Source: an uncultured Acidobacteriota bacterium (GTDB lineage Bacteria > Acidobacteriota > UBA6911). From it: 64,000 bases of DNA. How positions within the stretch are numbered: the first letter of the stretch is position 1; the number at the start of each line of letters is the position of its first letter. This document shows, piece after piece, positions 6,142 to 39,193 of this stretch. The stretch covers positions 4,395 through 68,394 of the forward strand of contig CAZHQK010000180.1 of NCBI GenBank assembly GCA_964534795.1. The letters run 5' to 3'. The translations under genes and the position numbers were made by a program. The notes beneath the pieces were generated by a model. That model worked only from the letters and a program-made list of their open reading frames with translations, ran no database searches and was not told where the DNA came from.

Positions 6142-6454
6142 CGCAACGCTCCATCCGGATGCGCGAATCCGGAAAGGTCGGCGCAACCGTCGGGCCAGTG
6201 CTCGCAGAACCGGGTGCCCGCCGACGCCTCGTCCCGTTCCCTGGTGGAACCTGTGGACACCAACCCTGCGCCTCCTTCGGCTTACTGCCCGCGCGGTATG
6301 CGAGGGGAAACATACCGCTCGCCTCAACGGGCCATATCGTTCGTTGGTGCTATTTTAAGCACAAAAAAAAAGGATGCAAGCGCCGAATCGCCCCGCTCGA
6401 CGGGGCGATCTCCGGTCTTTCCCCCGGAGGGGCCAACGCCCGCCCGGACGCTCT

Positions 6455-23739: not shown

Positions 23740-24081
23740 TGAACTTCCTCCATCCCTAAAGCGGGATGAAATCCGGACCCAGACCAACGGCTGGCGTCCG
23801 TCGTTTAACCCTGTCGAATTTAAACTCGATTTAGTCCTCATGCAAGAGTTTTTTTCGAAAATATGGCCAGATCTGGCAGGAAATTATTGTCAAAAGATAT
23901 TAAATCAGCACAAGCACCCGGCCATTTCGGCGATTTGAAAAAGATCGGCGACGCCGAACAGCCGACGGCAGGAAAGACTTCCCATGGCTGGGCCGCGACC
24001 CTCGATCCGGGATCGGAAGTCTCATTTGGCTCACTCTGAGACCGATTTGCCCTGCATTGCTCGGCGATAGGCCGCGTTTGC

Positions 24082-24150
24082 TGCAAAAAAAAATTTAAAT
24101 ATGATGACAAGCCGGTCAATTGCGTTTATTATTAACCGCCGAAAGGATCC
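24082..24150 (+). promoter_or_regulatory. conserved 69-nt upstream element, copy 1 (qmoABC leader)
   Basis: Ungapped 48/69 identity to 36638..36706. The core GCGTTTATTATTAACCG(C/G)CGAAA(G/A)GATCC matches at 27/29. GATGACAA is shared 14 nt upstream. A GC hairpin (cccgcc-tgaaggtcc-ggcggg) follows directly. Confidence 0.55.
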
Positions 24151-24608
24151 CGCCTGAAGGTCCGGCGGGAACCTGTGAGCAGGACTGGTTCCTGAAGTGC
24201 TCCGGCCCGGGTCGAGTCGGAGAGCGGAGGCAGCGAGGTCATCATCATCGATTCGGCAAGCTATGAAAACGGCCCGTGATCGCCATCATCGCATTACCCG
24301 TCATGGCGGACCCCGCGACACATCCCCTCGACTCCTCCCCCGTCGGCCCGGGGCAGCGCTGCGGCCTGTTCCTGCGATAGAGAAAGGCAGGTGTACGACG
24401 CTCGCCCCGAGCTCGGAGCCGCGGCGCTCCGGGCTCGTCGCGCGATGACAGGCGCAGGCACCGGCTGAGCCGGCCGACGTGCCCGGCAACCCGGTCTCGA
24501 GGCTACCGACGCCTTCGCATCGGGCCGGCGGCCGGACGCTCCCGCCGGGCGCGAGACAAGCCGGGGCCGAAGCCATCGACCAGAAGTCATATTCGCGAGA
24601 GACACAAT

Positions 24609-25868
24609 ATGAATGCCAAAGCAAAACCCATTCTAGTAATCGGCGGGGGCATAGCCGGGATGACGGCGGCGGTCGAAGCCGCCGAGGTAGGGTATCCCGT
24701 CGTCCTCGTGGAAAAGGAAGCGTATCTGGGAGGACGCGTAATGCGCACCTACCGCTACTTCCCGAAGATGTGTCCCCCGACCTGCGGCTTCGAAATCAAC
24801 GTGCGCCGGATCCGGCAGAATCCCAGAATCACGGTCCACACGCTTGCGACCGTGGAGGAGATCACCGGCCGCGCGGGTGCTTTCCGCGCCAGAATCAGGA
24901 AGCGCCCCCGATACGTGACCGGCCGGGAACCGCTGAGCGATTCCCTGGCGCAACAGCTGACCTCCGAGCGTCCCGACGACTTCAACCTGGGCATGGGCCG
25001 GACCAAGGCACTCTATCTGCCGCACGCAATGGCCTACCCGCCGCAGTATGTGCTGGACCGGGACGCCCTCTCCGCAGCCGACGCCGAAATCCTCAGGAAA
25101 AACGCCGCCGGGGCCGTCGATCTCGACATGGCCGAAGAGGAGCTGCTGGTCGAGGCGGGCACCGTCATCATCGCCACCGGATGGCGCCCGTATGACGCCG
25201 CCAAGCTCGACCATCTGGGCTTCGGAAAATGCCGCAACGTCATCACCAATGTCATGATGGAACGGCTGGCGGCGCCCGGCGGGCCGACGGGCGGAGAGAT
25301 CCTGCGGCCCTCCGACGGCAGGAAAGCGGAGAACGTGGCCTTCGTCCAATGCGCCGGTTCGCGCGACGAGAACCATCTTCCCTACTGCTCGGCCGTCTGC
25401 TGCATGGCTTCGCTCAAGCAGGCCAGGTACCTGAGGGAAAAGAACGCGAACGCCAAGGCGACCATCTTCTACATCGATATCCGCGCCGTGGGCCGCCTCG
25501 AGAAGTTTTATTACGACATGCTCGAGGATGCCAACGTCACCTATGTCAAGGGAAAGGTGGCCGGAATCAGCGAAGAACCCGGAAGCGGCAACCTGATCCT
25601 GGACGTGGAGGACACGCTGGCCGGCAGAAAGCAGCATCGCGGATTCGATCTTGCGGTCCTGGCGACCGGCATGGTGCCCAATACCGCCGATGCCGGCCTG
25701 CCCCTGCAGCTCCAATGCGACGACTACGGTTTCATCGACGGCACCACGGACATCGAGGGCGTGTATGCGGCCGGCTGTGTCAAGCGCCCGTGCGACGTTG
25801 CGCGTACGACCAAGGACGCCACCGCGGCTGCGTTGAAGGCCATCCAGTGCCTTCAGAGGGGAGAATGA
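24609..25868 (+). CDS. qmoA: QmoA (HdrA-like FAD flavoprotein)
   Basis: 419 aa with an FAD Rossmann start (ILVIGGGIAGMTAAVEAAE) and the HdrA-like Cys cluster (CAGSRDENHLPYCSAVCC). Confidence 0.9.
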   Translation: MNAKAKPILVIGGGIAGMTAAVEAAEVGYPVVLVEKEAYLGGRVMRTYRYFPKMCPPTCGFEINVRRIRQNPRITVHTLATVEEITGRAGAFRARIRKRPRYVTGREPLSDSLAQQLTSERPDDFNLGMGRTKALYLPHAMAYPPQYVLDRDALSAADAEILRKNAAGAVDLDMAEEELLVEAGTVIIATGWRPYDAAKLDHLGFGKCRNVITNVMMERLAAPGGPTGGEILRPSDGRKAENVAFVQCAGSRDENHLPYCSAVCCMASLKQARYLREKNANAKATIFYIDIRAVGRLEKFYYDMLEDANVTYVKGKVAGISEEPGSGNLILDVEDTLAGRKQHRGFDLAVLATGMVPNTADAGLPLQLQCDDYGFIDGTTDIEGVYAAGCVKRPCDVARTTKDATAAALKAIQCLQRGE

Positions 25869-25872
25869 ACCG

Positions 25873-28146
25873 ATGAAAGACAAGATCGGCGTCTTTATCT
25901 GCACGGGATACGGGATCGCGGAAGCGCTCGATATCGAAGCGCTGCGCAAGGTGGTCACCTCGGAATGCAAGGTGCCCTTCTGCAAGACGGTGGATTCCTG
26001 TGAGGGGCCCGCCCTGCAAGGGATCATCGAGGATATTGCCAGGGAAGGCCTGGCCAAGGTCGTCATTGCCGGGATTTCGCCGCGCCGCTACCCGGACGTC
26101 GCTTTCCCCGAGGGCGTCGTCGTCGAAAGGTTTGCGCTCCTCGAACACGTGGTATGGACGCAACCGGCGCGCGACGAGGATACGCAGATGATGGCGGAGG
26201 ACTACCTGCGCATGTACGTCACCAAGGTGCGCGAGATGGAACCTCCCCAGCCCTTCAAGCCGGAAGAAACCCTCGACAAGAGCATCCTGGTGGTCGGAGG
26301 CGGGATCACCGGGATGACCGCGGCGCTCGAAGGCGCCCGGGCCGGGTACCGCGTGCGCCTGGTCGAGAAGAGCGACCGCCTGGGAGGCTGGCTCGCCCGG
26401 CAGCACAAGTCGGTGCCCACCAAGCCGCCTTACAGAGAACTGGAGCCGACGGGGGTCGAGGATCTCATCAAGAAGGTCGAGAGCGACCCGCACATCACCG
26501 TCTACAAGTCGGCCGCCACCGGCCGCATCGCGGGCGCCCCCGGACTTTTCGACGTGACCCTGCATTCGACCGGCAACGGCCGCCCCGCCGGGGAAGTCGT
26601 CGATACCTTCCGCGTGGGGGCGATCATCCAGGCGACCGGCTGGAGACCGGCGGAACTCCGAGATACCCTGCCCTACGGCCGGCTGCCCGACGTCATCCGC
26701 AACGTCGAGCTGGAAGAAATGGTGCGCAGCCAAGGGCGCATCATCCGCCCTTCGGACGGCAGGGAGGTCAAGAGCATCGCCTTCATCCAGTGCGGCGGAT
26801 CGCGGCGCAAGGAACACCATTCCTACTGTTCTTCGATCTGCTGTCTGACCTCGCTCAAGCAGGCCCTCTACCTGCGCGAGCGGCAGAGCGACGGCAAGGC
26901 TTACATCTTCTACGAATTCATCCGGACGCCGGGGCACTACGAAGATTTCTACCGCCGGGTGCAGCAGGATCCCGGCGTGTTCCTCACCAAGGGTGAGGTG
27001 ACCGACGTGACCCGCGAGTCGGACGGCTCGTTGCTGGTCACGGCCCAGGACACCATGCTGGGCGAGCGGATCCAGGTCCGGGTCGACCTGGTCGTGCTCG
27101 CGGCCGGGATGGTGCCGAATTCGGCCGACGGCGAGGCTATCCGGGCGCTGCACGACGCCCAGGCTACGGCGACGCGCGGCGAATCGGAGGTGCAGCGCAA
27201 GGAGGCCGCCGAAAAGGCCGAACGGCTCAAGCACCACGAGGGCACGGAGATACTCAACCTGGTCTACCGCCAGGGACCCGACCTGCCGATCCTGCAGTAC
27301 GGCTTTCCCGACTCCCATTTCATCTGCTTCCCCTATGAGAGCCGGCGCACGGGAATCTATCCCGCGGGCAGCGTACGCCAGCCCATGGACGGAGTCGGCG
27401 CCCGCGAGGACGCGGCCGGTGCCGCCTTGAAGGCAATCCAGTGCGTGGAGATGACCGCCAGGGGCGAAGCGGTCCACCCGCGCGCGGGCGACAAATCCTA
27501 CCCTGAATTCTTCCTCCAGCGCTGCACCCAGTGCAAGCGCTGCACCGAGGAATGCCCCTTCGGCGTGCTCAACGAGGACGTCAAGGGCACCCCCCTGCTC
27601 CAGGCCACCCGCTGCCGGCGCTGCGGCGTCTGCATGGGGGCCTGCCCCGAGCGCATCGTGTCCTTCAAGGACTATTCGGTGCATATCATCGCCGAGATGA
27701 TCAAGGCGGTGGAGGTTCCGGACGAAGCCGAGGAAAAGCCGAGAGTCCTGGCCCTGCTGTGCGAAAACGACGCCATCCCCGCCCTGGACCTCGTGGGTCT
27801 GCACCGCCTCCATTACAACCCGTTCGTGCGCGTCGTCCCGGTGCGCTGCCTGGGCTCGGTCAACGCCGTCTGGGTCTCCGAGGCGATTTCGGCCGGCTAC
27901 GACGGCGTGCTGCTGGTGGGCTGCAAATACGGCGACGATTACCAGTGCCACTTCATCAAGGGGAGCGAGCTGGCGTTCACCCGCGGCGGGAACATCCGGG
28001 AAAAGCTCAAGCAGATGTCCATGGAGAACGAGAGGGTCGAACTCCACCAGCTACAGATCAACGAGTATGACAAGCTGCCGATGATTTTCGACAACTTCAT
28101 GAAAGTCATCGAAAAGTTCGGCATGAATCCATTCAAGGGCATGTGA
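25873..28146 (+). CDS. qmoB: QmoB (HdrA-like flavoprotein with ferredoxin and MvhD-like C-terminal domains)
   Basis: 757 aa with FAD motifs, the HdrA Cys cluster, 2x CxxCxxCxxxCP and an MvhD-like tail. Confidence 0.9.
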   Translation: MKDKIGVFICTGYGIAEALDIEALRKVVTSECKVPFCKTVDSCEGPALQGIIEDIAREGLAKVVIAGISPRRYPDVAFPEGVVVERFALLEHVVWTQPARDEDTQMMAEDYLRMYVTKVREMEPPQPFKPEETLDKSILVVGGGITGMTAALEGARAGYRVRLVEKSDRLGGWLARQHKSVPTKPPYRELEPTGVEDLIKKVESDPHITVYKSAATGRIAGAPGLFDVTLHSTGNGRPAGEVVDTFRVGAIIQATGWRPAELRDTLPYGRLPDVIRNVELEEMVRSQGRIIRPSDGREVKSIAFIQCGGSRRKEHHSYCSSICCLTSLKQALYLRERQSDGKAYIFYEFIRTPGHYEDFYRRVQQDPGVFLTKGEVTDVTRESDGSLLVTAQDTMLGERIQVRVDLVVLAAGMVPNSADGEAIRALHDAQATATRGESEVQRKEAAEKAERLKHHEGTEILNLVYRQGPDLPILQYGFPDSHFICFPYESRRTGIYPAGSVRQPMDGVGAREDAAGAALKAIQCVEMTARGEAVHPRAGDKSYPEFFLQRCTQCKRCTEECPFGVLNEDVKGTPLLQATRCRRCGVCMGACPERIVSFKDYSVHIIAEMIKAVEVPDEAEEKPRVLALLCENDAIPALDLVGLHRLHYNPFVRVVPVRCLGSVNAVWVSEAISAGYDGVLLVGCKYGDDYQCHFIKGSELAFTRGGNIREKLKQMSMENERVELHQLQINEYDKLPMIFDNFMKVIEKFGMNPFKGM

Positions 28147-28197
28147 GCGCGGCGCGACCGCCCGCGGCTCGAGAACCATGCAGGGTGCGGAGGAAAC

Positions 28198-29469
28198 ATG
28201 ACAGTGGAAAGTGCCGTCAAGCGGGAAAGCGGCGCAGGAATGCCGGTGCCTGCGGCGCCGGGGCCCGGGCTTTCCGGCGACACGCGACCGGTGCGCATCG
28301 AACCGGACCTGGAGTTCATCCGTGCGCTTATCAGCGGGGGGGCGGACACGGTCAAGAAGTGTTTCCAGTGCGGAACGTGCTCGGCGACCTGCACCCTTTC
28401 GCCCGATCCCGAGCCGTTTCCGCGCAAGGAAATGGCCTGGGCGCTGTGGGGCTGGAAGGACCGGCTGGTGCGCGATCCCGATGTCTGGCTGTGCCACCAG
28501 TGCCAGGACTGCTCCGTTCGCTGCCCGCGGGGCGCGCGGCCGGGTGACGTGCTGGCGGCGGTGCGCCAGGAATGCGTCGCGCACTATGCCTTCCCCCGTT
28601 TCCTGGCGCGCTGGATGAGCCGGCCGCAGTACGTCCCCCTGCTCCTGGCCATCCCCATAGCACTTCTGACCTTGGCCCTGCTGCTGCGGGATACGCTCGC
28701 GGCCGCCCTGGGTTTCTCACCTCAACCGGGGGCGCGCATCATCTATGCCTACTCGAGCGTCTTCCCGCACTGGCTGCTGAACGGCTTCTTCGGTCTCTTC
28801 AGCCTGCTGGCATTGCTCGCCATGCTGGTGAGCGCCCGGCGCTTCTGGCGGGCTCTCGAAGAAGCGGATCGCATGCCGCGCATCCGGGGGCTTGCCGCCA
28901 GCACCTGGGCGGCGCTGCGCAGCATCGCCACGCACAGGAATTTCGACCTGTGCACGGCGGCGCGGCCGCGCTACCTTTCCCATCTCTGCGTGCTCGCCGG
29001 TTTCGTAGCCCTGACGCTGGTCACGCTATGGGTGATCACCGCCGAATACAACCCCCTGATCCGCTCCGACTTCGTCTATCCTTTCGGCTTCTGGAATCCG
29101 TGGAAGATGCTGGCCAACGTGGGCGGAATCGCCGTGCTGGCCGGCTGCCTGCTCATGGCCTGGGAGCGCCTGCGCGAGGGCGGCTCGATGGGCATCGGGG
29201 CCTATTTCGACTGGGTGCTGCTCGCCGACCTGTTTCTGGTCGTCGCCACGGGATTCGCCACCGAGGTGCTGCACTACCTGCGCCTGGAACCCCACCGACA
29301 TATCGCCTACTTCACGCACCTGGTCTTCGTCTTCACGCTGCTGATCTACCTGCCCTATTCGAAACTGGCCCACCTGGTCTACCGCGCCCTGGCCATGATC
29401 CATGCCGACCGCATCGGGCGCATCCTGGGAAGCGCCCCGACTCCGGGCGCTGAAAGGACGGGGCGGTGA
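28198..29469 (+). CDS. qmoC: QmoC (HdrC-like Fe-S domain fused to an HdrE/NarI-like cytochrome b membrane domain)
   Basis: 423 aa with an N-terminal CFQCGTCSATC...CHQCQDCSVRCPRG, then 5-6 TM helices. Confidence 0.85.
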   Translation: MTVESAVKRESGAGMPVPAAPGPGLSGDTRPVRIEPDLEFIRALISGGADTVKKCFQCGTCSATCTLSPDPEPFPRKEMAWALWGWKDRLVRDPDVWLCHQCQDCSVRCPRGARPGDVLAAVRQECVAHYAFPRFLARWMSRPQYVPLLLAIPIALLTLALLLRDTLAAALGFSPQPGARIIYAYSSVFPHWLLNGFFGLFSLLALLAMLVSARRFWRALEEADRMPRIRGLAASTWAALRSIATHRNFDLCTAARPRYLSHLCVLAGFVALTLVTLWVITAEYNPLIRSDFVYPFGFWNPWKMLANVGGIAVLAGCLLMAWERLREGGSMGIGAYFDWVLLADLFLVVATGFATEVLHYLRLEPHRHIAYFTHLVFVFTLLIYLPYSKLAHLVYRALAMIHADRIGRILGSAPTPGAERTGR

Positions 29470-29486
29470 CCCCGAAGGAGAAAACC

Positions 29487-29855
29487 ATGAACGAAACGCC
29501 GCAAAGTTCGCGCAGTGTTCTTTTCCTGGCCGTCCCGGCGCTGATCCTGCTGCTGCCTTTCGCCTACAGCCTGGTCGCCTACGTGGCCGGCGCGGACACC
29601 GCCGCCGCCCGGCCCTTCCTCGAAAAGCCCGATCCCAAGTATCGGAACTGCGTGCGCGAAACCGCCTACATGCGTTTCCATCACTGGGAGCTGCTCAGAA
29701 CGGTGCGCGAGGAGGTGGTGCGCCAGGGGAAGCCGAGCGAGACGGGCCTGAAGCAATGCAAGAATTGTCACACGAGCAGGGAGCGCTTCTGCAATCAGTG
29801 CCACAACGCGGTCACTCTGAACCCCGACTGTTTCGGATGCCATTACTATCCGTGA
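29487..29855 (+). CDS. DsrJ-like membrane-anchored triheme cytochrome c (paralog)
   Basis: ATG at 29487 with AAGGAGA upstream, and an N-terminal TM anchor. It has three CxxCH (CKNCH, CNQCH, CFGCH) and aligns with DsrJ, including the extra Cys (RNCVRETAYM vs GTCVAPTDYM). Its start is 18 nt after the qmoC stop. Confidence 0.75.
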   Translation: MNETPQSSRSVLFLAVPALILLLPFAYSLVAYVAGADTAAARPFLEKPDPKYRNCVRETAYMRFHHWELLRTVREEVVRQGKPSETGLKQCKNCHTSRERFCNQCHNAVTLNPDCFGCHYYP

Positions 29856-29907
29856 GCACGCAGCCGGCGGTCGGCAAATGCAAGCAGCCTTGGAGGGTCG
29901 AGCGAAA

Positions 29908-30633
29908 ATGGACAGAAGAGAATTTCTGACGGCCGGCGGGGGCCTCCTGTTGGCGGGCGCCGCCGGCACCTATGCGGTACGGTTGCTCACGCAGGCCGGG
30001 GCCGTCGAAGCGGTCACGGCAGGGCGGCACAGGTGGGGCATGGTAGTCGACCTGCGCAAGTGCCGACCGGACTGCACGGCGTGCCTGGAGGCCTGCAGGC
30101 TGGAAAACAACACGGCTTCCGTCGGCGACGCGCGCTGGGACGTGCATTGGATCCGCAAGGTCCATGTCAAGCCGAAGAACGGCGGGGCCGAGCGCTCCGT
30201 GGTGCTCCTGTGCAACCATTGCGACCATCCGCCGTGCGCCCAGGTGTGCCCCGTGCAGGCCACTTACAAGCGTGCGGACGGCATCGTCATCGTGGACCAT
30301 CACCGCTGCATCGGGTGCCGCTACTGCATGATCGCCTGCCCCTACAACGCCCGCTACTTCAATTTCAAGGAAAGCGAGGAGTGGCCCAACAAGGAGTTCC
30401 CCAAACGCTCGCACGGCGTCGCGGAAAGCTGCACGCTGTGCGCCCATCTCCTCGACGTCGGCAAGAAACCGGCGTGCGTCCAGGCCTGCGAGCGCGCACA
30501 GGCCGGAGCGCTCGTCGTGGGCGACCTGAACGATCCGCAGAGCGAGATTTCCAGGTTGGTTTCCGAGAATTCCGTCAAACGGCTCAGGGAGGATCTGGGC
30601 ACGGAGCCCAAGGTTTACTACATCGGATTATGA
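29908..30633 (+). CDS. DsrO-like Tat-exported 4Fe-4S ferredoxin subunit (NrfC/PsrB family)
   Basis: Tat signal MDRREFLTAGGGLLLAGAAG, a GGAGGG RBS and four ferredoxin-type Cys clusters. Confidence 0.8.
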   Translation: MDRREFLTAGGGLLLAGAAGTYAVRLLTQAGAVEAVTAGRHRWGMVVDLRKCRPDCTACLEACRLENNTASVGDARWDVHWIRKVHVKPKNGGAERSVVLLCNHCDHPPCAQVCPVQATYKRADGIVIVDHHRCIGCRYCMIACPYNARYFNFKESEEWPNKEFPKRSHGVAESCTLCAHLLDVGKKPACVQACERAQAGALVVGDLNDPQSEISRLVSENSVKRLREDLGTEPKVYYIGL

Positions 30634-30655
30634 CGGTTCACCTGTGAGGGACGGC

Positions 30656-31852
30656 ATGGAAGTCAAATACGAGCGCATCGCAGGAAACTCCAGGCACTAT
30701 TACCTGGCGCTGGCGGCCTTCGCCGCCGTCGGCCTGGCGGGGGTGCTGTGCACCTTCTGGGTTCTCGGTCAGGGGCTGTGGGTGACCGGCATGTACAACC
30801 GCGTGCCCTGGGGCCTGCAAATCGTCATGGCAATCTATTACATCGGGCTCTCGGCGGGCTCCCTGGTGATCTCCGGCCTCTACGGCGTCTTCGGCAAGCT
30901 GGAGTACAAGCCTTTCGCCAGAACCGCCGTCTATCTCGGCATGCTCTTCATGATCGCCGGCCTGCTTTCCATTCTCACCGACCAGGGCCGGATGGACCGG
31001 GTCTTCGTCCAGCCCTTCGTCCATTTCAACCTCCTCTCCCTGTTCTCGATCAACCCGATGCTGTATATCAGCTACATCCTCATCTGCATCGTCTACCTCT
31101 ACGCGCTCTTCCGGGACAAAAAGAAGCTCACCCGGGTCGTCGCCACCCTGGCCTTCGCCTGGGCTTTCGGCGTCCACAGCGGCACGGGGGCGATCTTCGG
31201 CTTCGGTCCCAGAACGCTCTACGATTCGCCGCTGCTGCCGGCCAGCTTCGTCGTGGCCGCCATGGCCTCGGGCACCGGCCTGATGATCGCCTTGCTCGTC
31301 GCCCTCTTCCGCCTCACCCGCAGGCACCTGGATGACGAGCTGGTCTTCGGGCTGGGACGCCTGCTGGCGCTGTTCGTTCTGGTGGTCCTCTATTTCCTGG
31401 CGGTGGAAAACCTGTATTTGGTTTACCAGGTGGAGTGGCGCGAGGCGGCCCTATACTACCTCTTCGGCGGATTCCACAGCGTGATCTTCTGGGTCGGCCT
31501 CATCGGGCTCGGCTGCGCCGTGCCGCTCTTCCTGCTGTTTTACCCGCGGACCTCGAAGTCGATCCCCTGGGTGGTGACGGCGGGCTGCCTGGTGGTTTTG
31601 GGAGTGCTGTGCGAGCGGTACGTGATCGTGATCCCCGGCCTGACGCGCCCGCCGGAGATTTTCCCCGGGATGGAAGTCAGCGGGCCGGGCCTGATCGAAG
31701 GGGTGGCGAGCTACGCGCCGACGCTCGTCGAATTCTGCCAGGCGCTGGGGGTGCTGGGAATCATCGGATTCCTGTTCCTCGCGGGCCTGAAGGTGTTCAA
31801 GTTGTTGCCGGCCGAGGCGCGCATCGCGAAACAGGCTGGCCCGGCCAGTTGA
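30656..31852 (+). CDS. DsrP-like NrfD/PsrC-family integral membrane subunit
   Basis: About 398 aa with 10 predicted TM segments. A GAGGGA RBS precedes the ATG at 30656. The gene is 11 nt from the preceding Fe-S subunit gene. Confidence 0.8.
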   Translation: MEVKYERIAGNSRHYYLALAAFAAVGLAGVLCTFWVLGQGLWVTGMYNRVPWGLQIVMAIYYIGLSAGSLVISGLYGVFGKLEYKPFARTAVYLGMLFMIAGLLSILTDQGRMDRVFVQPFVHFNLLSLFSINPMLYISYILICIVYLYALFRDKKKLTRVVATLAFAWAFGVHSGTGAIFGFGPRTLYDSPLLPASFVVAAMASGTGLMIALLVALFRLTRRHLDDELVFGLGRLLALFVLVVLYFLAVENLYLVYQVEWREAALYYLFGGFHSVIFWVGLIGLGCAVPLFLLFYPRTSKSIPWVVTAGCLVVLGVLCERYVIVIPGLTRPPEIFPGMEVSGPGLIEGVASYAPTLVEFCQALGVLGIIGFLFLAGLKVFKLLPAEARIAKQAGPAS

Positions 31853-31894
31853 AGGAGCCCGGACACCCCAAGAAGATGGTGCCGCGCCGCGATC

Positions 31895-31920
31895 GCATGC
31901 CGGCCCTCGCGCCGGCATGC
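31895..31920. other. perfect 10-bp palindromic hairpin between convergent genes
   Basis: gcatgccggc cctcgc gccggcatgc. It lies between the NrfD-like gene 3' end and the CoADR-rhodanese 3' end, with no U-tract on either side. Confidence 0.4.
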
Positions 31921-31921
31921 C

Positions 31922-33574
31922 TCAGGGATTGAATCCGCAATAGGTCACATACCCGCCCGACAGAGTGCCTGCCCGGAAGCCGTGCTGCACCAGAATGCGC
32001 ACGGCCGTATAGGAGCGCTCGCCGATGGCGCAATAGACCAAAAGCTCGCGGTCGCGCGGCAGCTCGGCGAGCCGGTCGCGCAGATCGCCGAGCGGAATGT
32101 TGACCGCCCCGTCGAGATGGTCCGCGGCGAACTCGAAGGGCTCGCGCACGTCGATCAGCAGCGCGTCCGTGCTCGCCAAACCACTCCAGCCGGCTGCGGG
32201 CATATCTCCGCGCAGCACGTTGGCCGCGACCATTCCCGCGAGATTCACCGGGTCCTTGGCACTGCCGAACTGGGGAGCGTAGCATAGCTCGCACTCCTCC
32301 AGATCGAAGACCGTCCCATTCTTCTGCAAAGCCATCGCGATCACGTCGATGCGCTTGTCCACGCCCCCTTCCCCCGTCGCCTGGGCCCCCAGAATCCTCC
32401 CCTCCGGTCGGGAGAAGATGAGCTTGATGTGCATCCGCTTGGCGCCCGGGTAGTAGGAAGCATGCTGGTATGGGTGCAGGTAGACGACTTCGTAGTCGCG
32501 CACGCCGTGCTGCTTCAGGACCTTTTCGCTCGCGCCCGTCATGGCGACGGTCATGCCGAAGATGCCGCAGACGGCCGTGCCCTGGACGCCGCGAAAGCGC
32601 GCGTTGCGGCCGCATATGGCATCGGCCGCGACACGCCCCTGGCGGTTTGCCGGCCCGGCGAGCGGCATCAGGCACCATCTGCCGGTGACCGCGTGGCGCA
32701 CTTCCACGGCATCGCCGACGGCCCAGATCGCCGGATCGCTCGTGCGCATGGACTCGTCGACGCGGATGCCGCCGAGCTCCCCGATCTCCAGTCCCGCAGC
32801 ACGCGCGAGCGCGACCTCGGGCTTGACCCCGATCGCCAGGATTACGATATCGGCGGTCAGCGACGCGCCGCCTGCGGTGCGCACGACCAGCCCGCCGCGC
32901 GCGTCCGCTTCGAAGCCCGTCACCCCGTCCCCCAGATGGAGGTCCACCCGGTTCTCTTCCAGACAGCGCATCACCGGCTCTGCCATTTCGCCATCCAGAG
33001 GAGCCATCACCTGCGGCAGGACGTCGACGACGGTCACCGCCAGGCCGCGACGCACCAGATTCTCCGTCATCTCGAGACCGATATAACTGCCGCCGACCAC
33101 GACCGCCTTGCGCGCCCGGCGCGCCGCGATCCATTCCCGGATCTCGCGACTGTCGGGGATGGTGCGCAGCGAGAAAATCCCGGGAAGGTCGATTCCGGGG
33201 AGGGGCGGGCGCAAGGGAGCGGCGCCGGGAGCGAGAACCAGTGCGTCGTATCCTTCGCGGTATTCCCCGCCGGTCGCACCGTCCCGGACGACGAGCTCGC
33301 GCCGCCGCCGATCGATGGCGGTCGCTTCGTGCAGGACGCGCACGTCGATGTTGAATCGCCGGCGGAAAAGATCGGGCGACACCATCAGCAAATCGTCCTC
33401 GTCCGGAATGACACCGCCGACGTAATAGGGAAGCCCGCAGTTCGCAAAGGAAACATACGGGCCGCGCTCGAGCAGAACGATGGCCGCGCCCTCGTCGAGC
33501 CGACGCAGACGCGCAGCGCACGAGGCACCGCCGGCCACTCCACCGACAATGATGACCTTTCTGTTTGTTTCCAT
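31922..33574 (-). CDS. CoA-disulfide reductase-family flavoprotein fused to a C-terminal rhodanese domain (NADH persulfide/polysulfide reductase-like)
   Basis: 550 aa. It has an FAD/NAD(P) Rossmann fold, the redox Cys in SFANCGLPYY, and a C-terminal rhodanese with a catalytic Cys (LLVYCAIGERS). Confidence 0.8.
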   Translation of the reverse strand: METNRKVIIVGGVAGGASCAARLRRLDEGAAIVLLERGPYVSFANCGLPYYVGGVIPDEDDLLMVSPDLFRRRFNIDVRVLHEATAIDRRRRELVVRDGATGGEYREGYDALVLAPGAAPLRPPLPGIDLPGIFSLRTIPDSREIREWIAARRARKAVVVGGSYIGLEMTENLVRRGLAVTVVDVLPQVMAPLDGEMAEPVMRCLEENRVDLHLGDGVTGFEADARGGLVVRTAGGASLTADIVILAIGVKPEVALARAAGLEIGELGGIRVDESMRTSDPAIWAVGDAVEVRHAVTGRWCLMPLAGPANRQGRVAADAICGRNARFRGVQGTAVCGIFGMTVAMTGASEKVLKQHGVRDYEVVYLHPYQHASYYPGAKRMHIKLIFSRPEGRILGAQATGEGGVDKRIDVIAMALQKNGTVFDLEECELCYAPQFGSAKDPVNLAGMVAANVLRGDMPAAGWSGLASTDALLIDVREPFEFAADHLDGAVNIPLGDLRDRLAELPRDRELLVYCAIGERSYTAVRILVQHGFRAGTLSGGYVTYCGFNP

Positions 33575-33607
33575 GGATCTCCCTCAGGCAGGCCGCACGC
33601 ACCCCGG

Positions 33608-34384
33608 TCAGCGGGAAGCGTCGTCCGGCCGGCGATCGAGCGCGCGCCGGGCCGCATCCAGCTTTTCGCGCAGGCGCACCACTTCGCCGATCACCAGCGT
33701 GGCCGGCGGCTTCAAGCCCGCGCGTTCGACCTCGTCCGCAATAGTGGCCAGCGTCGCCGTCACCACCCGCTCGTCGCGCCAGAAAGCCGTCTGGATCATG
33801 GCGGCCGGCGTCTGCGGGCTGCGCCCGCTTTCCATCAGGCGCGCGGCGATGCGCCGGACGTTCTGCACCCCCATGACGAAGACTAGGGTCTCGATCGCGC
33901 TCAGGGCGCGCCAGTCCAGGCGGCCCGGTTCGCCGCGGGCCTCGTGCCCGGTGACGATGGCCACGCACGACGCCGCATCACGGTGGGTCACCGCGATGCC
34001 CGCGCGCAGCGGGGCCGCCAGCGCCGACGAGATGCCCGGGACGACCTCGAAGGGGATGCCGTGCTCCGCGAGAAACTCCGCCTCCTCGCCGCCCCTTCCG
34101 AAAAGGAAAGGATCGCCTCCCTTGAGGCGAACCACCATCTTGCCCTCCTGCGCCTTGCGCACGAGCAGCCGGTGGATCTCCTCCTGGCGCACATCCTGCC
34201 CGCCGACGGCCTTGCCCATGTAAATGCGTTCGGCGCCGGGTCCGACCAGCGCCAGCGTGTCCTCCTGGATCAGCCGGTCGTAAACCACCACGTCGCAAGC
34301 CCGCAAAAGCTCCGCCGCCTTCAAGGTGAGGAGCTCCGGAGGGCCGGGGCCCGCCCCCACCAGGTATACCTTGCCGCTTGTCAT
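33608..34384 (-). CDS. cobA: uroporphyrinogen-III C-methyltransferase (SUMT)
   Basis: VYLVGAGPGPPELLTLKA...GGDPFLFGRGGEE...VVPGISS are SUMT signatures. ATG at 34382-34384 has a GAAGAGG RBS. The track's upstream GTG at 34408 is an alternative. Confidence 0.85.
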   Translation of the reverse strand: MTSGKVYLVGAGPGPPELLTLKAAELLRACDVVVYDRLIQEDTLALVGPGAERIYMGKAVGGQDVRQEEIHRLLVRKAQEGKMVVRLKGGDPFLFGRGGEEAEFLAEHGIPFEVVPGISSALAAPLRAGIAVTHRDAASCVAIVTGHEARGEPGRLDWRALSAIETLVFVMGVQNVRRIAARLMESGRSPQTPAAMIQTAFWRDERVVTATLATIADEVERAGLKPPATLVIGEVVRLREKLDAARRALDRRPDDASR

Positions 34385-34551
34385 CGCCGGCCTCTTCGCC
34401 GAGGGCACTCTTCTTTATCACGCCGCCTCGGGCAGTGCAACACGCGATTGGCCCCCACGGCGACTCTGACACCGGCATTGCGATTCAGATACCGGCAGCC
34501 GAGGGTGAGCCGAAGGCGAAGGCAAGCAGATCCCGCGCGCCGCGCGCGATC

Positions 34552-34598
34552 GCCGGCTTGAAGCAATAAGCCCCCGGTCCGCCACGGCGCGGCGGACC
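34552..34598 (+). repeat. 47-nt hairpin-containing element, copy A, in the leader of the cbiA/dsrN-like gene
   Basis: GCCGGCTTGAAGCAATAAGCCCCCGGTCCGCCACGGCGCGGCGGACC. It is 39/47 identical (ungapped) to copy B. It contains the stems GCTT/AAGC and GTCCGCC/GGCGGAC. Confidence 0.55.
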
Positions 34599-34835
34599 TA
34601 CCAGCCCCGGCAGGGGCCCTGAGCCGGTAGCCGGGGGTGAGCCGGAGGCGAACCCCCGGAAAGGAGCGTTAGATCAGTCGAGCCCCGGAGGGCCGACAGA
34701 CCAGGTTTCTGATTCATCCTTCTGCCGGCCCTTCGGGGCTTGTCGCATGCCGTCACCTTTTCTCCAGGTTCGCTTCCGCTCACCTGGAGCTACCAGCTTC
34801 CGTCCCTCCGGGACGGATATGCGCCGCGCGGAAAC

Positions 34836-34882
34836 GCCAGCTTGAATCAATAAGTTCACCGTCCGCCGCGGTGCGGCGGACC
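34836..34882 (+). repeat. 47-nt hairpin-containing element, copy B
   Basis: GCCAGCTTGAATCAATAAGTTCACCGTCCGCCGCGGTGCGGCGGACC. Both stems are preserved. Confidence 0.55.
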
Positions 34883-34970
34883 GGGGCAGGAGGGCATCGC
34901 GCGCAAGGGGGCCTGTGCAAGCGCCGGCGATTCATGTATCCTGAAACGCAAGTGGTCGGCTGGGTCGGTA

Positions 34971-36374
34971 ATGAGCGGTGATCGGGATGAAGCGCGGGCG
35001 CTGCCGCGCGTCGTGATCGCAGGCCTGTCCGGGGACTCCGGCAAGACGCTTGCCGCCCTCGGCCTGCTGCTTGCGGCGCGCGCGCGCGGTCTCGAGGTCG
35101 CCGCCTTCAAGAAAGGTCCGGATTACATCGACGCCGCTTGGCTGAGCTGGGCGTCGGGCCGGCAGGCCAGGAATCTCGATTCCTTCCTCGCGGGCTTCCC
35201 GGGATGCGCGGCTTCCTTCGGCCGGCACGCACTGCCTGGGGGGTTGAACGTCATCGAGGGCAACCGCGGCCTCTACGACGGCGTGGATGCCTGCGGCACC
35301 CACAGTACGGCCGAGCTCGCCAAGGCGCTGCAGGCCCCCGTGATCCTGGTCATCAACGCCGCCAAGGTCACGCGCACCATCGCCGCTCCGATCCTGGGAT
35401 GCCTCGATCTCGATCCCGACGTGCACATCGCCGGCGTCATCCTCAACCGCGTCGCCGGGCAGCGCCATGAGACCATGCTGCGCGCGGCGGTGACGGCGTG
35501 CGGCCTTCCGGTGCTCGGTGTCATTCCCCGGATCGCCGCCCCGGCGCTGTTGCCCGAACGCCACCTCGGCCTGGTGACTCCGGCGGAACATCCGGGGATC
35601 GAGGACCTCGAGCGCAACCTGCGCACCCTGGCAGAGAGGCTCGATCTGGACGGGATTGGATCGATCGCACGCGACGCACCGCCCCTCGCCGTCCCGGCAC
35701 CCGCCGCCATGCAGGGAGCGCCGGCCCGCACCGTCAGGATCGGCTTCCTGCGCGACAGCGCCTTCAATTTCTACTATCCGGAAAACCTCGAAGCATTGCA
35801 GCAGCACGGCGCCGAGCTGGTTCCGCTGTCGAGCCTGGAATCGCCCGAGCTGCCGGCGGATCTCGCCGCACTGTACATCGGCGGCGGCTTCCCGGAAACG
35901 CACGGCGCGGCGATCGCGCGCAACAGTTCCTTTCTCGGCAGCCTGCACCATGCAGCAGCCGCGGGGCTGCCCATCTATGCCGAGTGCGGCGGCCTGATGC
36001 TCCTCTCCGAAGCCGTCGTCTGGCGCGGAGTTTCATACCCCATGGCCGGCTGGCTGCCCTTCCCGGTCCACATGTGCGAGACGCCGCAGGGCCATGGCTA
36101 CGCCGAGCTTCTGGTCGACCGGCCCAATCCGTTCTACCCGCCGGGCCTCTCCCTGAAAGGCCACGAGTTCCATTACTCGAAAATCGCCCTGCAGTCCGAA
36201 GAGCCGCGGACGGCCTGCGCCGTGCGCCGCGGCACGGGCTGCTTCCACGGCCGCGAGGGCATCGTGCGCGCCAACACCTGGGCGGGCTATACGCACATCC
36301 ATGCCTCCGCGACGCCGGAATGGGCGCCGGCGTTCGTGCAATGCGCGCGGCGCTTCGCCGACAGCGCAAGATAA
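34971..36374 (+). CDS. cobyrinate a,c-diamide synthase family amidotransferase (CbiA/CobB homolog; plausibly DsrN-type sirohaem amidase given context)
   Basis: 467 aa with an N-terminal CbiA ATPase domain (VIAGLSGDSGKTLAALGLLLAA) and a C-terminal GATase-1 domain (YAECGGLMLL...). It sits next to SUMT inside the sulfate-reduction island. Confidence 0.8.
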   Translation: MSGDRDEARALPRVVIAGLSGDSGKTLAALGLLLAARARGLEVAAFKKGPDYIDAAWLSWASGRQARNLDSFLAGFPGCAASFGRHALPGGLNVIEGNRGLYDGVDACGTHSTAELAKALQAPVILVINAAKVTRTIAAPILGCLDLDPDVHIAGVILNRVAGQRHETMLRAAVTACGLPVLGVIPRIAAPALLPERHLGLVTPAEHPGIEDLERNLRTLAERLDLDGIGSIARDAPPLAVPAPAAMQGAPARTVRIGFLRDSAFNFYYPENLEALQQHGAELVPLSSLESPELPADLAALYIGGGFPETHGAAIARNSSFLGSLHHAAAAGLPIYAECGGLMLLSEAVVWRGVSYPMAGWLPFPVHMCETPQGHGYAELLVDRPNPFYPPGLSLKGHEFHYSKIALQSEEPRTACAVRRGTGCFHGREGIVRANTWAGYTHIHASATPEWAPAFVQCARRFADSAR

Positions 36375-36637
36375 CAGAGAGATCGGCTCGCTCCGCTCGC
36401 CGACCTCCGGGACCGGGAGGCATAGGCCCAAAGGGGAAAAGGCATCGGGCGACTCACAGGCGAACCCGCGCCAGTGCTTCCCGGCTCCTCGGCCCCTTTG
36501 TTTGCCGGTCTACTGCAAGCCGATTGCGAAGGCCCGGCCGGATCGGGAGCTTAACCGACCAATGGTGCGAATTGCGATGATGACGTCAGCGGTAAACGAT
36601 TCTTGGACGACAGGTCCGCTCCCGGGCATGGCTTTGT

Positions 36638-36706
36638 TGCAGAATTTTAATTAAAGGCGATGACAACGGCAGCTCCAGCGTTTATTATTAACCGGCGAAA
36701 AGATCC
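36638..36706 (+). promoter_or_regulatory. conserved 69-nt upstream element, copy 2 (sat leader, about 118 nt before the ATG)
   Basis: The core GCGTTTATTATTAACCGGCGAAAAGATCC lies at 36678..36706. It is followed by the hairpin gatccag-ggggat-ctggatc. Confidence 0.55.
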
Positions 36707-36823
36707 AGGGGGATCTGGATCGCGCTCAGGTTGAGAACGGTCATGATTTGGGACTTCAGATTGATCATTTCGGCGAGGCGATTCACGTGCCGCTTTCGCC
36801 CTTGATACGCAAGGAGGACCTCG

Positions 36824-38092
36824 ATGAGCAAATTGGTACCCCCGCATGGCAGCCCGACGCTGAAACCCTTGCTTCTCGGACAGGAGGAGGCCAAGGAAGA
36901 GCTCAAGAAGGCGCAGACGCTCAAGAAAGTGCCCATGTCGACGCGCGAGACGAGCGACCTCATCATGATGGGGATCGGCGCGTTCACGCCGCTCGACGGT
37001 TTCATGGGGCGAGCCGACTGGCAGGGATGCTGCGACACCTATACCATGCCGAGCAAGAACAATCTTTTCTGGCCTATTCCCATAACCCTATCGGCGGCCC
37101 AGGATCTGGCGGATTCCATCAAGATCGGCGAGGAAGTCGCCCTTTGGGATCTCGAAACCGAGGCCGTCATGGGAACCATGAAGGTCGTCGAAAAGTACAC
37201 CATCGACAAGGAGCATGAGTGCCGGCAGATCTTCAGGACGACCGACCCGGCGCATCCCGGCGTCGAGAAGGTGATGCAGCAGGGGCCGGTAAACCTGGCC
37301 GGACCGGTCAAGGTCATCTCCGAGTCCTACTACCCGGAAATGTTCCGCGGCATCTACCAGCGCCCGGCCGAGGCGCGCAAGGTTTTCGAGGAGCGCGGGT
37401 GGAGCACCGTGGCCGCGCTGCAGCTGCGCAATCCCATGCACTCGTCCCATGCCTACCTGGCCTGGATCGCCATCGAAGTGTGCGACGGCGTTTATATCCA
37501 CCAGCTGGTGGGCAAGCTCAAGCCCGGCGACATCCCGGCCGACGTGCGCGTGAAGGCGATCGACGTGCTGGTCAACAAGTACTTCCGCAAGGACCGCGTC
37601 GTTCAGGGCGGCTATCCCATGGAGATGCGCTATGCCGGCCCGCGCGAGGCCCTGCTGCATGCGGTCTTCCGCCAGAACTACGGCTGCTCCCATCTCATCG
37701 TCGGCCGGGATCACGCGGGGGTCGGCGACTACTACGGCCCGTTCGACGCCCAGAAGATATTCAACGAGATCCCGCAGAACGCGCTGGTCTTGCGCCCGCT
37801 CTGCATGGACTGGACATTCTACTGCTACGAATGCAAGAGCATGGCCTCGATGAAGACCTGCCCGCACGAAAGCAAGGCGGTGATCGACGAAAACGGCGTC
37901 TACAAGGGCGGCGCCAGGCTCCTGCTTTCCGGAACCCTGCTGCGCAAGCTCATGAGCGAGGGGAAACCCGTGCCGCCCGAGTTTTCCAAGCCCGAGGTGA
38001 TCGCCGTGCTCAAGGAGTACTACGACAAGCTCGAGCAGAAGGTGGATATCAAGCTGCACGGATTCGCCACGGGTGAGAAAAAGAGTTCCTAG
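36824..38092 (+). CDS. sat: sulfate adenylyltransferase (ATP sulfurylase)
   Basis: 422 aa with [18 protein letters not shown] and a PUA-like N-terminus. A GGAGGA RBS is present. Confidence 0.95.
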
Positions 38093-38257
38093 CCTGCCGC
38101 CCGATCTGCATGGCCGTGCCCGGGCTCTCTTCGAGCCCCAGGCTGCCGACGAGGTCGCAGAGGCGCTGCGCGCCCGCCGTTCCGGCGGCGGGCGCACCGC
38201 CGCCTGCCGGCGGAACCATTCCGTCGGAGCGGCCGTGCCCCGGAGAAAGGAAGCCCG

Positions 38258-39193
38258 ATGACCGCTGCTCTCTATCTGTTTCTCTACGCGATGATCCTGG
38301 TGTTCGCCGCCGGATGCGCCGTCAGAATCTACCGCTACGCGACCGCCCCGATGCACCTGCGCTGGGAGCTCTATCCCGTCCCCCACGAAGAGCCTCACCG
38401 GGTGCGACACGGCGGGTCCTACTTCGAAGCGCCGGATTGGTGGACGCGTCCCGTCCATTTCAACCTCGCAGGCGAACTCAAGTTCATGATCCCCGAGATG
38501 ATCTTTCTCAAGGGACTCTGGGAGTTCAACCGGCCGATGTGGCGGCGCTCCTTCCCCTTCCACTTCGGACTGTACCTGCTCATCGGTACCGCAGCCCTGG
38601 CGGCGGTGGCGGCGGTGCTCGACCTGATCGCCGCGGGGACTTCGAGCACGGGCCTGGGCTGGGCGATCGCCCGGCTCTATACGGTCACCGGACTCGCCGG
38701 AGCGATCCTGTGCGTCGTCGGAGCTCTGGGCCTGTTGCACCGGCGCCTGACCGACCCGAAACTGCGGCTCTATACAACCCCGGGAGACATATTCAATCTG
38801 GTCTTCTTCGTGGTCGCCGTCGCGCTGCTCTTCGCCGGCTTCGCCTTCGGCGGGCCGGACACTCCCGGGCCGGCTGCGATCGTGCGCGGGCTCGTCCGTT
38901 TCGACACCGGTCTCGAGATCCCGGCCACGCTCGCCGTCGGGCTGGCCCTCGCCGGGCTGCTGATCGCCTACATCCCGATGACGCACATGTCCCACTTTAT
39001 CGCGAAGTGGTTCACCTACCACGAAATCCGCTGGGACGACCAGCCGATCGCGCGCAGCCGCAGGCTGGCGCGCAAGCTCGCCGAGCAGCTCGCCTACCGG
39101 CCCACCTGGGCCGCCGCGCACGTAGGGGCCGACGGCAGCAAGACGTGGGCGGACGTCGCGACCACCAATCCGGCTCAAGGAGCGAAGCGATGA
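38258..39193 (+). CDS. DsrM/HdrE-like (NarI-type) membrane cytochrome b, paralog
   Basis: 311 aa with 5 TM helices and His residues positioned as in DsrM/HmeC. Its stop overlaps the next gene's start (ATGA). Confidence 0.75.
   Translation: MTAALYLFLYAMILVFAAGCAVRIYRYATAPMHLRWELYPVPHEEPHRVRHGGSYFEAPDWWTRPVHFNLAGELKFMIPEMIFLKGLWEFNRPMWRRSFPFHFGLYLLIGTAALAAVAAVLDLIAAGTSSTGLGWAIARLYTVTGLAGAILCVVGALGLLHRRLTDPKLRLYTTPGDIFNLVFFVVAVALLFAGFAFGGPDTPGPAAIVRGLVRFDTGLEIPATLAVGLALAGLLIAYIPMTHMSHFIAKWFTYHEIRWDDQPIARSRRLARKLAEQLAYRPTWAAAHVGADGSKTWADVATTNPAQGAKR

Follow-up and report, generated by a model that had tools for sequence, protein, structure and literature searches.

The window, by which is meant the whole 64-kb stretch of DNA analysed from an uncultured Acidobacteriota bacterium (65 % G+C), carries on its + strand qmoA, qmoB and qmoC followed by DsrJ-like, DsrO-like (Fer4_11) and DsrP-like (NrfD) genes (24609..31852), as assigned with Pfam and NCBIfam. 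The genes of this qmoABC-dsrJOP group lie on one strand with short gaps between them. Further along the same strand, at 36824..40800, are located sat (36824-38092) and a membrane/CCG-domain pair of genes that is DsrMK- or HdrED-like. Pfam matches on the sat side were to ATP-sulfurylase, PUA_2 and CCG, and the gene calls of locus L001 comprise Nitrate_red_gam and CCG.

The original prediction for this DNA held that one repeated element precedes both qmoABC and sat. The element proved to be real: an ungapped comparison of 24082-24150 with 36638-36706 reproduced 48 identical bases out of 69, a 29-nt core identical at 27 of 29 positions (24122..24150 on the qmo side, 36678..36706 on the sat side, both on the + strand) and the block GATGACAA common to both copies (24103-24110 in the qmo copy). 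Local alignment extended the similarity 5 nt further to the left, to 24077 and 36633 (TTTGYTGCA), and detected no further significant similarity downstream in the two leaders. A second leader block common to both, ATCAT..TTCGGCRAG, was rejected as not significant, 198 of 200 shuffles scoring at least as high. The core pattern with up to three mismatches occurred twice in the window, in comparison to no occurrence in 100 dinucleotide shuffles. No other direct repeat of the window is an intergenic pair, and the identity of this one, 93 % (family D14), is the highest of all.

The copies seen in the 64-kb window and in the ~33 kb of the sister genome number only two. An nhmmer profile prepared from six copies did not find a third one in the window and in about 1 Mb of further loci, and the profile and the pattern search agreed with the earlier statement that the regions upstream of marR-aprBA and dsrA contain no copy. 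The core was present within eight mismatches in none of the 38 loci obtained by a QmoC-anchored search of genome contigs, all being at most 62 % identical, and sat and qmoA with separate, comparable promoters were never found on one locus. A collection of metagenome contigs, which excludes the source sample, was scanned with the 19-base pattern TTTATTATTAACCGNCGAAA and gave six chance matches on unrelated contigs of 29-56 % G+C.

A promoter scan revealed what had been overlooked in the original prediction, namely a -35 hexamer ATGACA contained within GATGACAA (24104..24109 and 36660..36665) and, exactly 17 bp downstream, a -10 hexamer TATTAT (24127..24132 and 36683..36688). In both copies ATGACA agrees with TTGACA at five of six positions and TATTAT with TATAAT also at five of six, including the A at the second and the T at the sixth position, which amounts to 10/12 against the sigma-70 consensus, a consensus that is that of E. 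coli and may not be the host's. ATGACA-17-TATTAT ties for the best promoter score in the window, where five sites of at least 10/12 were found and 0.85 were expected from shuffles. Both copies share the + strand with the operon that follows and lie at -505 (qmo) and -164 (sat) from the start codons. Of the first 12 spacer positions between the hexamers only two match across the copies, as read from the alignment, so the similarity resides in functional promoter blocks, unlike that expected of a recent duplication. It is likely, judging from these features, that both copies are sigma-70 (housekeeping) promoters of one design, equipped with an UP-like tract and a hairpin at the start.

Other sigma factors fitted poorly. 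An ECF-sigma reading (TGACAA ... CGTT) would leave a spacer of just 12 nt. Sigma-54 promoters were defined by GG at -24 and GC at -12 at a fixed spacing (TGGCAC-N5-TTGCW); by reading the sequence, the closest GG...GC pairs were located in GGCCGCGTTTGCTGCA and GGGCATGGCTTTGTTGCA, where they miss this register by 1-2 nt, and sigma-54 had been correctly excluded at the outset. The qmo copy also contains TTGACC-16-TAAATT (9/12) on the minus strand, which is probably spurious because it is missing from the sat copy and weaker in the relative L054.

The AT-rich flank reported in front of both copies was confirmed. The tract on the qmo side, GCTGCAAAAAAAAATTTAAATA (24080..24101, + strand), which occupies -59..-38 if transcription starts at 24139, contains 82 % A+T, and the corresponding tract on the sat side, GTTGCAGAATTTTAATTAAAGG (36636..36657, + strand), contains 73 %, the two constituting two of just seven AT-rich islands in 64 kb. 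Their position at -59..-38 and their composition would fit UP-element-like sequences. The outermost part of the element is a distal conserved block, TTTGCTGCA in the qmo copy (24077..24085, about -62..-54), at which the local alignment starts, and TTTGTTGCA in the sat copy (36633..36641), recognized by local alignment and the nhmmer profile; the six ortholog and paralog copies all carry this block, GnTTTGYTG, without variation.

On the qmo side the segment 24074-24150 shows 96 % identity with L052 and likewise with L054 (QmoA 92 % identical in amino acids); in both, all 29 core positions and both hexamers are unchanged and the UP-like tract is nearly invariant. The spacer adjoining the element is 84 % identical in L052 and merely 62 % in L054, and the leader is 70-81 % identical to that of L054, the part 24176-24340 being 99 % (L052) and 81 % (L054) identical. 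The sat relatives L047, L057, L058 and L063 encode Sat proteins of 98-87 % amino acid identity. In these the -35 hexamer is ATGACA in L047, L058 and L063 and GTGACA in L057, and the -10 hexamer follows TATNAT, being TATTAT in L047 and L057, TATCAT in L058 and TATGAT in L063. The spacing is 17 bp in L047, L052, L054, L057 and L058 and 18 bp in L063. Beyond the hexamers the core on the sat side decays stepwise with distance, while the hexamers and the 17-18 bp spacing persist: L047 shows one change, G to C, at a position that was variable already, and L057 retains GCGTTTATTATTAAC and GAAAAGAT, its spacer being completely different. As far as these comparisons go, the whole element is under strong purifying selection and is the best conserved stretch of intergenic DNA.

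Each copy is followed by a predicted hairpin, as had been noted originally. The qmo stem-loop (24144..24174, + strand) comprises GGAUCC:GGAACC and an inner CGCC/GGCG helix, with a minimum free energy of -20 kcal/mol (z = -3.2). The sat stem-loop (36701..36716, + strand), AGAUCC/GGAUCU with the loop AGGG, reaches -16 kcal/mol (z = -2.5) and is invariant in L047; an alternative register, GAUCCAG / CUGGAUC, is available to it. The earlier remark that the hairpin sequences differ was half right, because the common RGAUCC forms the basal helix in both: the remark applies apart from the base, where RGATCC of the core provides the 5' arm in each copy and pairs with GGAWC. On the qmo side the predicted leader, counted from the inferred start, is non-coding and 470 nt long (24139..24608, + strand). 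A test of it for a small ORF showed unbiased codon-position substitutions (24/27/21) and no conserved reading frame. The sat leader contains an upstream ORF of 20 codons, which was discarded, being frameshifted in L047.

Each promoter would thus be composed, in order, of GnTTTGYTG, the A/T-rich UP-like tract (~-59..-38), ATGACA, the 17-bp spacer, TATTAT and the start. The UP-like tract would recruit the C-terminal domains of the RNA polymerase alpha subunits, and transcription would begin 6-8 nt downstream of the -10 hexamer, near 24139 and 36695. The qmo copy is expected to drive qmoABC-dsrJOP via the 470-nt leader, and the sat copy to drive sat and the DsrMK-like pair via a leader of 130 nt. 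The final 12 nt of the core would be transcribed, and RGAUCC would supply the 5' side of a stem-loop that begins some 8 nt into the mRNA and could stabilise these presumably abundant messages. The two copies may go back to a single ancestral promoter module and would have stayed alike as each position matters to the same machinery. We infer the start sites, the UP function, the promoter strength, the mRNA stabilisation and the common ancestry of the copies.

The E. coli rrnB P1 type is a strong sigma-70 promoter with an UP element. The two copies share with it the near-consensus hexamers, the 17-bp spacer, the A/T tract at about -40 to -60 and the location ahead of presumably highly expressed operons of core metabolism, but their -35 hexamer begins with A and not T, their -10 hexamer is TATTAT, the host is uncultured with 65 % G+C, and the discriminator and the first 12 bases of the predicted transcript are also covered by the identity of the copies. 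Some bacterial mRNAs are stabilised by 5'-terminal stem-loops of the ompA 5' UTR type. Both mRNAs considered here would similarly possess a stable hairpin within ~8 nt of the 5' end, although this end is predicted and the single-stranded 5' tail would be longer than in the classical cases. Most likely the promoter pair is of the ordinary housekeeping type and constitutes no new kind or class of element. Among the shared operator, dedicated promoter and 5' leader RNA element proposed originally, the promoter is supported by the hexamers, the 17-bp spacing and the A/T tract, whereas the special character ascribed to it is not, the sites being of an ordinary sigma-70 type.

The core nevertheless includes parts beyond sigma-70 recognition. 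In the qmo copy it is made up of GCGTT (-17..-13), the -10 hexamer, the discriminator TAACCG, the predicted start at ~24139 and CGAAAGGATCC (+3..+12), of which GCGTT (with TG absent at -15/-14), TAACCG and +3..+12 may be read by an extra factor. For this part of the core, unexplained by sigma-70, operator and leader-RNA roles are possible, and the near-identity of -17..+12 could reflect a shared operator or the foot of the 5' hairpin. It is conceivable, though rather doubtful, that -17..+12 is recognised by a factor specific to this lineage, which couples sat to qmoABC-dsrJOP and acts either as a repressor on the -10 hexamer or by binding RNA at the 5' hairpin.

A shared operator would add to the promoter reading and not replace it. 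A dedicated factor bound across the -10 hexamer would co-regulate sat (sulfate activation) and qmo (electrons to APS reductase), a proposal that we put forward only tentatively; equally tentative is the choice of the factor, which could be the neighbouring MarR-family protein or a different repressor, and of its site, a near-palindrome on the -10 hexamer. Operators overlapping the -10 region are known for the MarR family, and the two copies resemble them in the A/T-rich pseudo-palindrome placed there and in the presence of a MarR-family gene in the same intergenic region. The candidate palindrome, GTTTAT-T-ATTAAC or CGTTTA-N4-TAACCG, is centred on the -10 hexamer, and the 16-bp pseudo-palindrome is exclusive to these two sites in the window. 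The conservation also exceeds the needs of sigma-70, with 27/29 positions kept between the paralogs, 29/29 among the qmo orthologs and GCGTTTATTATTAAC preserved in L057. However, the palindrome is imperfect (5/6 half-site pairs), such symmetry is cheap in a sequence so rich in A and T, and with up to two mismatches four matches were obtained, a number equalled by 6 of 100 shuffles and hence not clearly above chance. Against a shared operator speak also the decay of the core in L058 and L063, where the hexamers persist, and the failure to find a third site in the ~64 kb of genome covered.

The marR-aprBA genes have an operator-like sequence of their own. GTTTAAATTCnACnnGGTTAAAC, with the inverted repeat GTTTAA-N11-TTAAAC, shows deep conservation at the marR-aprBA promoter, being kept there in five lineages, and occurs once in the window (23803-25), but neither copy of the element contains it, even with six mismatches allowed. 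In the start region of marR, CGTTTAACC resembles the core minus TTATTA; the half-site spacing differs and the resemblance was not counted as evidence.

Coordinate control of the two functions has a precedent in Desulfovibrio alaskensis G20, where, of the sulfate-reduction genes, those responding in a rex mutant are qmoABCD and sat (PMC4045070), and in the Desulfovibrio Rex regulon Rex boxes mediate the joint repression of sat and qmoABCD (PMC4045070). The present loci are similar in that sat and Qmo functions are preceded by a common cis element, which suggests coordinate control, but they differ in having the promoter itself as the common sequence and no Rex box. The whole window gave no match to TTGTGAA-N4-TTCACAA with up to three mismatches, in agreement with the original exclusion of Rex.

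According to another explanation, which we consider unlikely, the functional unit is a 5' leader RNA motif, (S)CGAAARGAUCC with its stem-loop, bound by a protein or sRNA or acting as a 5' stabiliser, and the DNA upstream is merely a promoter. In both transcripts RGAUCC indeed supplies the 5' arm of the basal helix, at an equal distance from the -10 hexamer. Changes in the relatives are also consistent with pairing: two C-to-U changes in the qmo hairpin of L052 retain G-U pairs, possible in RNA but not in DNA, an A-A mismatch becomes an A-U pair in L054, and the leader of L057 retains GAUUC...GGAUC. On the other hand, wherever a plausible start is placed, over half of the core (GCGTTTATTATTAACCG) precedes it and so cannot act as RNA, the two leaders have no other sequence in common, and the changes are a handful in a handful of sequences, the hairpins of L057 (z = 0.2) and L058 being no better than shuffles. 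RNAalifold run on three qmoA leaders only gave an unfavourable covariation term (+3.72), with no net covariation support. Rfam 15 yielded no match at the gathering score in the window and, in two regions, only chance-level ones (E >= 2), i.e. no family match even at the cut-off of E = 5. Resemblances to the IHF and CsrA consensus sequences were judged by eye alone.

That the copies are direct repeats bounding a 12.5-kb segment (24151-36632) that has moved or been duplicated, in the manner of att-like island scars with an incidental likeness to promoters, is highly improbable despite their same orientation, 12,556 bp apart, around sulfur-metabolism genes, as no integrase, transposase or tRNA was found at either end, the similarity is blockwise (hexamers strong, spacer weak) and not uniform, the distance between the sat copy and sat is unchanged in L057, the hexamers are kept in L058 and L063 despite differing gene content, and the repeat is under strong purifying selection.

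To our knowledge almost nothing is known about the transcription of dissimilatory sulfur genes outside Desulfovibrio. The preferred reading, that of two sigma-70 promoters, provides probable promoters at base resolution, with predicted starts and leaders, for sat and qmoABC-dsrJOP of an uncultured lineage, and these could be used for reading metatranscriptomes or building expression tools. It also narrows a possible coordinate regulation to a short stretch, i.e. GCGTT, TAACCG and +3..+12. If a lineage-specific factor did act there, it would couple sat to qmoABC-dsrJOP in a clade of uncultured, Acidobacteriota-like bacteria that metabolise sulfate or sulfite, and would play the part that Rex has for the same genes in Desulfovibrio, through an unrelated motif. 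In distant phyla qmoA is likewise preceded by strong sigma-70-like promoters, as scored against the E. coli consensus, and by long leaders. The qmoA promoter of L017 (Zixibacteria) displays an identity of 14 nt, TTATTATTAACCGG, which, were such a factor to exist, would hint that its site travels with the qmo genes.

The window has a G+C content of 65% and derives from an uncultured bacterium known from the metagenomes JGI 3300022548 and ENA ERZ27245602. The genes dsrC and dsrBA, two small zinc-finger/CxxCxxCC genes, aprAB and a MarR-family gene (23134-23739) lie on the minus strand. An intergenic region of 869 nt separates the MarR-family gene from qmoA, the first gene of a plus-strand series of qmoA, qmoB, qmoC and DsrJ-, DsrO- and DsrP-like genes (24609-31852). 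Genes for a CoA-disulfide-reductase/rhodanese, a uroporphyrin methylase and a DsrN-like amidase are placed between the DsrP-like gene and sat (36824-38092), which is followed by a DsrMK/HdrED-like pair. For the region of this pair (38110-40800) the ORF list gives one 896-aa reading frame; gene calls on identical metagenome contigs give a 311-aa membrane protein (Nitrate_red_gam-like) and a 536-aa CCG-domain protein, which are the DsrMK/HdrED-like pair, and the 896-aa ORF is probably an overlap artefact with a different frame or start.

The likeness on which the original prediction was based was reproduced. In an ungapped alignment, 48 of the 69 bases of the segments upstream of qmoABC (24082-24150) and sat (36638-36706) are identical; the segments share the block GATGACAA and agree at 27/29 positions of the core GCGTTTATTATTAACCG(C/G)CGAAA(G/A)GATCC (24122-24150 and 36678-36706). 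Local alignment extended the similarity leftwards by a few bases to TTTGYTGCA at 24077 and 36633, and found no significant similarity of the qmo and sat leaders beyond the element, further downstream. With up to 3 mismatches allowed, the core occurs at exactly two sites in 64 kb and at none in 100 dinucleotide shuffles, and of all the window's direct repeats only this pair is intergenic; it also has the highest identity. With a profile HMM trained on six copies, a third one was found neither in the window nor in the other loci retrieved, a search that covered the window's 64 kb of the source genome and, of the sister genome, about 33 kb.

The arrangement of the conserved blocks makes it likely that both copies are promoters, of one sigma-70 design. 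A consensus scan placed ATGACA (within GATGACAA) exactly 17 bp from TATTAT (within the core) in both copies. The hexamers of each copy match TTGACA/TATAAT at 10 of 12 positions; only five sites in the whole window score at least 10/12, both copies among them, against a shuffle expectation of 0.85. With transcription starting about 7 nt past the -10 hexamer (near 24139 and 36695), the AT-rich flank falls at -59 to -38, which is the position of an UP element. Its A+T content is 82% in the qmo copy and 73% in the sat copy, compared to 35% for the genome, and four of the only seven AT-rich islands in 64 kb correspond to the two elements and the marR-aprBA promoter region. The design would thus comprise an UP-like tract, the -35 hexamer, a 17-bp spacer, the -10 hexamer and a 5' stem-loop, with one copy predicted to drive qmoABC-dsrJOP and the other sat. 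Such promoters would be useful for annotation and for interpreting expression in uncultured sulfur-cycling bacteria, while being unsurprising to specialists. Since only two of the first 12 positions of the inter-hexamer spacer match between the copies, their similarity comes in blocks that correspond to the parts of a promoter, a pattern that, judged from the alignment, is unlike the uniform likeness left by recent duplication.

The comparative set consisted of six element copies and two diverged sat promoters. The sister genome ERZ4756918 (loci L047 and L052) encodes Sat and QmoA 98% identical in amino acids to those of the window, and L054 is a more distant qmo-side relative (QmoA 92%). The qmo element (24074-24150) is 96% identical to both L052 and L054, and its core is retained at 29/29 in both; the adjoining spacer DNA is 84% (L052) and 62% (L054) identical, and the qmoA leader 70-81% identical to that of L054. 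The sole change in the L047 sat element affects a base that already differs between the window copies. Among the other sat-side relatives, L057 (Sat 91%, DsrN 72%, same dsrN-sat synteny) retains GTGACA-17-TATTAT, GCGTTTATTATTAAC and GAAAAGAT with a wholly different spacer. L058 (Sat 89%) retains ATGACA-17-TATCAT, the remaining core being gone, and L063 (Sat 87%) retains ATGACA-18-TATGAT just 87 nt before sat. The part that persists longest is therefore precisely the set recognised by sigma-70. As far as the compared sequences indicate, the extended core belongs to one clade: in the distant relatives examined (Gemmatimonadota, Planctomycetota, Zixibacteria and others) it is absent before qmoA, which is preceded there by strong sigma-70-like promoters and long leaders.

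The near-identity of the two copies at -17 to -13, in the discriminator and at +3 to +12, where neutral intergenic DNA is meanwhile about 62% identical, is open to further explanations. One candidate is the needs of the 5' hairpin. The original prediction of a hairpin in both copies held, a stem-loop being predicted at each 5' end (qmo -20 kcal/mol, z = -3.2; sat -16 kcal/mol, z = -2.5), but the accompanying statement that the hairpin sequences differ is wrong for the basal helix: RGAUCC of the core forms its 5' arm in both, with GGAWC as the partner. The qmo hairpin has an extra inner helix. In the L052 stem both substitutions replace a C by U opposite G, which keeps the pairing in RNA, not in DNA; in L054 an A-A mismatch becomes A-U and one inner pair is lost. 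These very few changes give modest support to a possible role at the RNA level, e.g. as a 5' stabiliser. The L057 and L058 hairpins were no better than shuffles.

A shared operator, which is compatible with the promoter reading, is another candidate source of the same near-identity, with a rather low probability. Both copies have the -10 at the centre of a pseudo-palindrome, CGTTTA-N4-TAACCG, whose surroundings are very A/T-rich and which appears weak as operator evidence. A MarR-family gene accompanies aprBA in all relatives, down to 58% identity. The marR-aprBA promoter region (23800-23870, minus strand) is deeply conserved (L052, L054, L059, L060, L061 and L062) and consists of an A-tract, TTGCAT, a 17-bp spacer and TAAATT, followed by AATCnnGTTTAAATTCnACnnGGTTAAAC. 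The latter carries the inverted repeat GTTTAA-N11-TTAAAC from -10 to about +10, is retained where MarR is just 58-65% identical and occurs once in the window; the scan did not find it at the qmo or sat copy. It probably serves as an operator by which MarR controls both its own expression and APS reductase, and if so, there is no obvious action of MarR on the qmo and sat promoters. In every relative compared, including those with MarR 58-65% identical, marR lies directly upstream of aprBA.

In Desulfovibrio, sat and qmoABCD respond jointly to Rex (PMC4045070). This is an analogy only. The window contains no Rex box at up to 3 mismatches, in agreement with the original view that the element is not a Rex operator. 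Nor is it a sigma-54 promoter, the GG/GC spacing read from the sequence being off by 1-2 nt. The element is unlikely to be a mobile-element or att repeat: its similarity is blockwise, recombinase genes are lacking, and it is conserved in other contexts.

In L017, a Zixibacteria MAG (QmoA 72% identical in amino acids), promoter-like TTGGCG-18-TATTAT followed by TAACCGG lies at 6120-6180, 173 nt upstream of qmoA. At this phylum-level distance it shares a 14-nt exact match, TTATTATTAACCGG, with the sat-copy core, which may have arisen by chance or may be a remnant of promoter sequence that moved together with qmo. Seven loci of Gemmatimonadota and relatives (L004, L005, L011, L012, L014, L029 and L040) have TTGACA/TTGACT-17-CATAAT about 130-140 nt upstream of qmoA, with GCGAGAAnnnCATCACA within the spacer and a repeated box of the type TGTGAGAA-N4-TTCACA upstream of -35. 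The box resembles an operator for a Rex- or CRP/FNR-like factor, though its spacing is unusual.

In protein searches the closest relatives of the window Sat were labelled Acidobacteria, many of them at 84-91% identity. Among the matches listed for QmoB none fell between 96% and 81% identity, and the nearest named relatives carried the labels Planctomycetota, Zixibacteria and Acidobacteriota. The source genome and its sister are apparently the only ones that figure in both the best 120 Sat matches and the best 120 QmoB matches. The sulfur locus looks mosaic.

The predicted non-coding leader of qmoA is 470 nt long (24139-24608) and may be a structured regulatory leader. Its substitutions displayed no codon-position bias, and in consensus folding of three leader sequences the covariation term was unfavourable (+3.72). 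Within the leader lies a conserved hairpin, CGCCAU...AUGGCG, whose loop varies, and over 24176-24340 the leader reaches 99% identity with the sister genome and 81% with L054, compared to 62% for spacer DNA. Intergenic regions of 779-1069 nt likewise precede qmoA in L055 and L056. In L047 a frameshift disrupts the small ORF of the sat leader. No Rfam family matched the element regions or the qmoA leader. CsrA recognises GGA motifs within hairpins, and AAGGAU stands at the base of the 5' hairpin of the qmo copy. In L059 (10638-11348), from a relative carrying marR-aprBA, fliW and csrA are found a few kb downstream; a CsrA link to the qmo hairpin is a loose lead.
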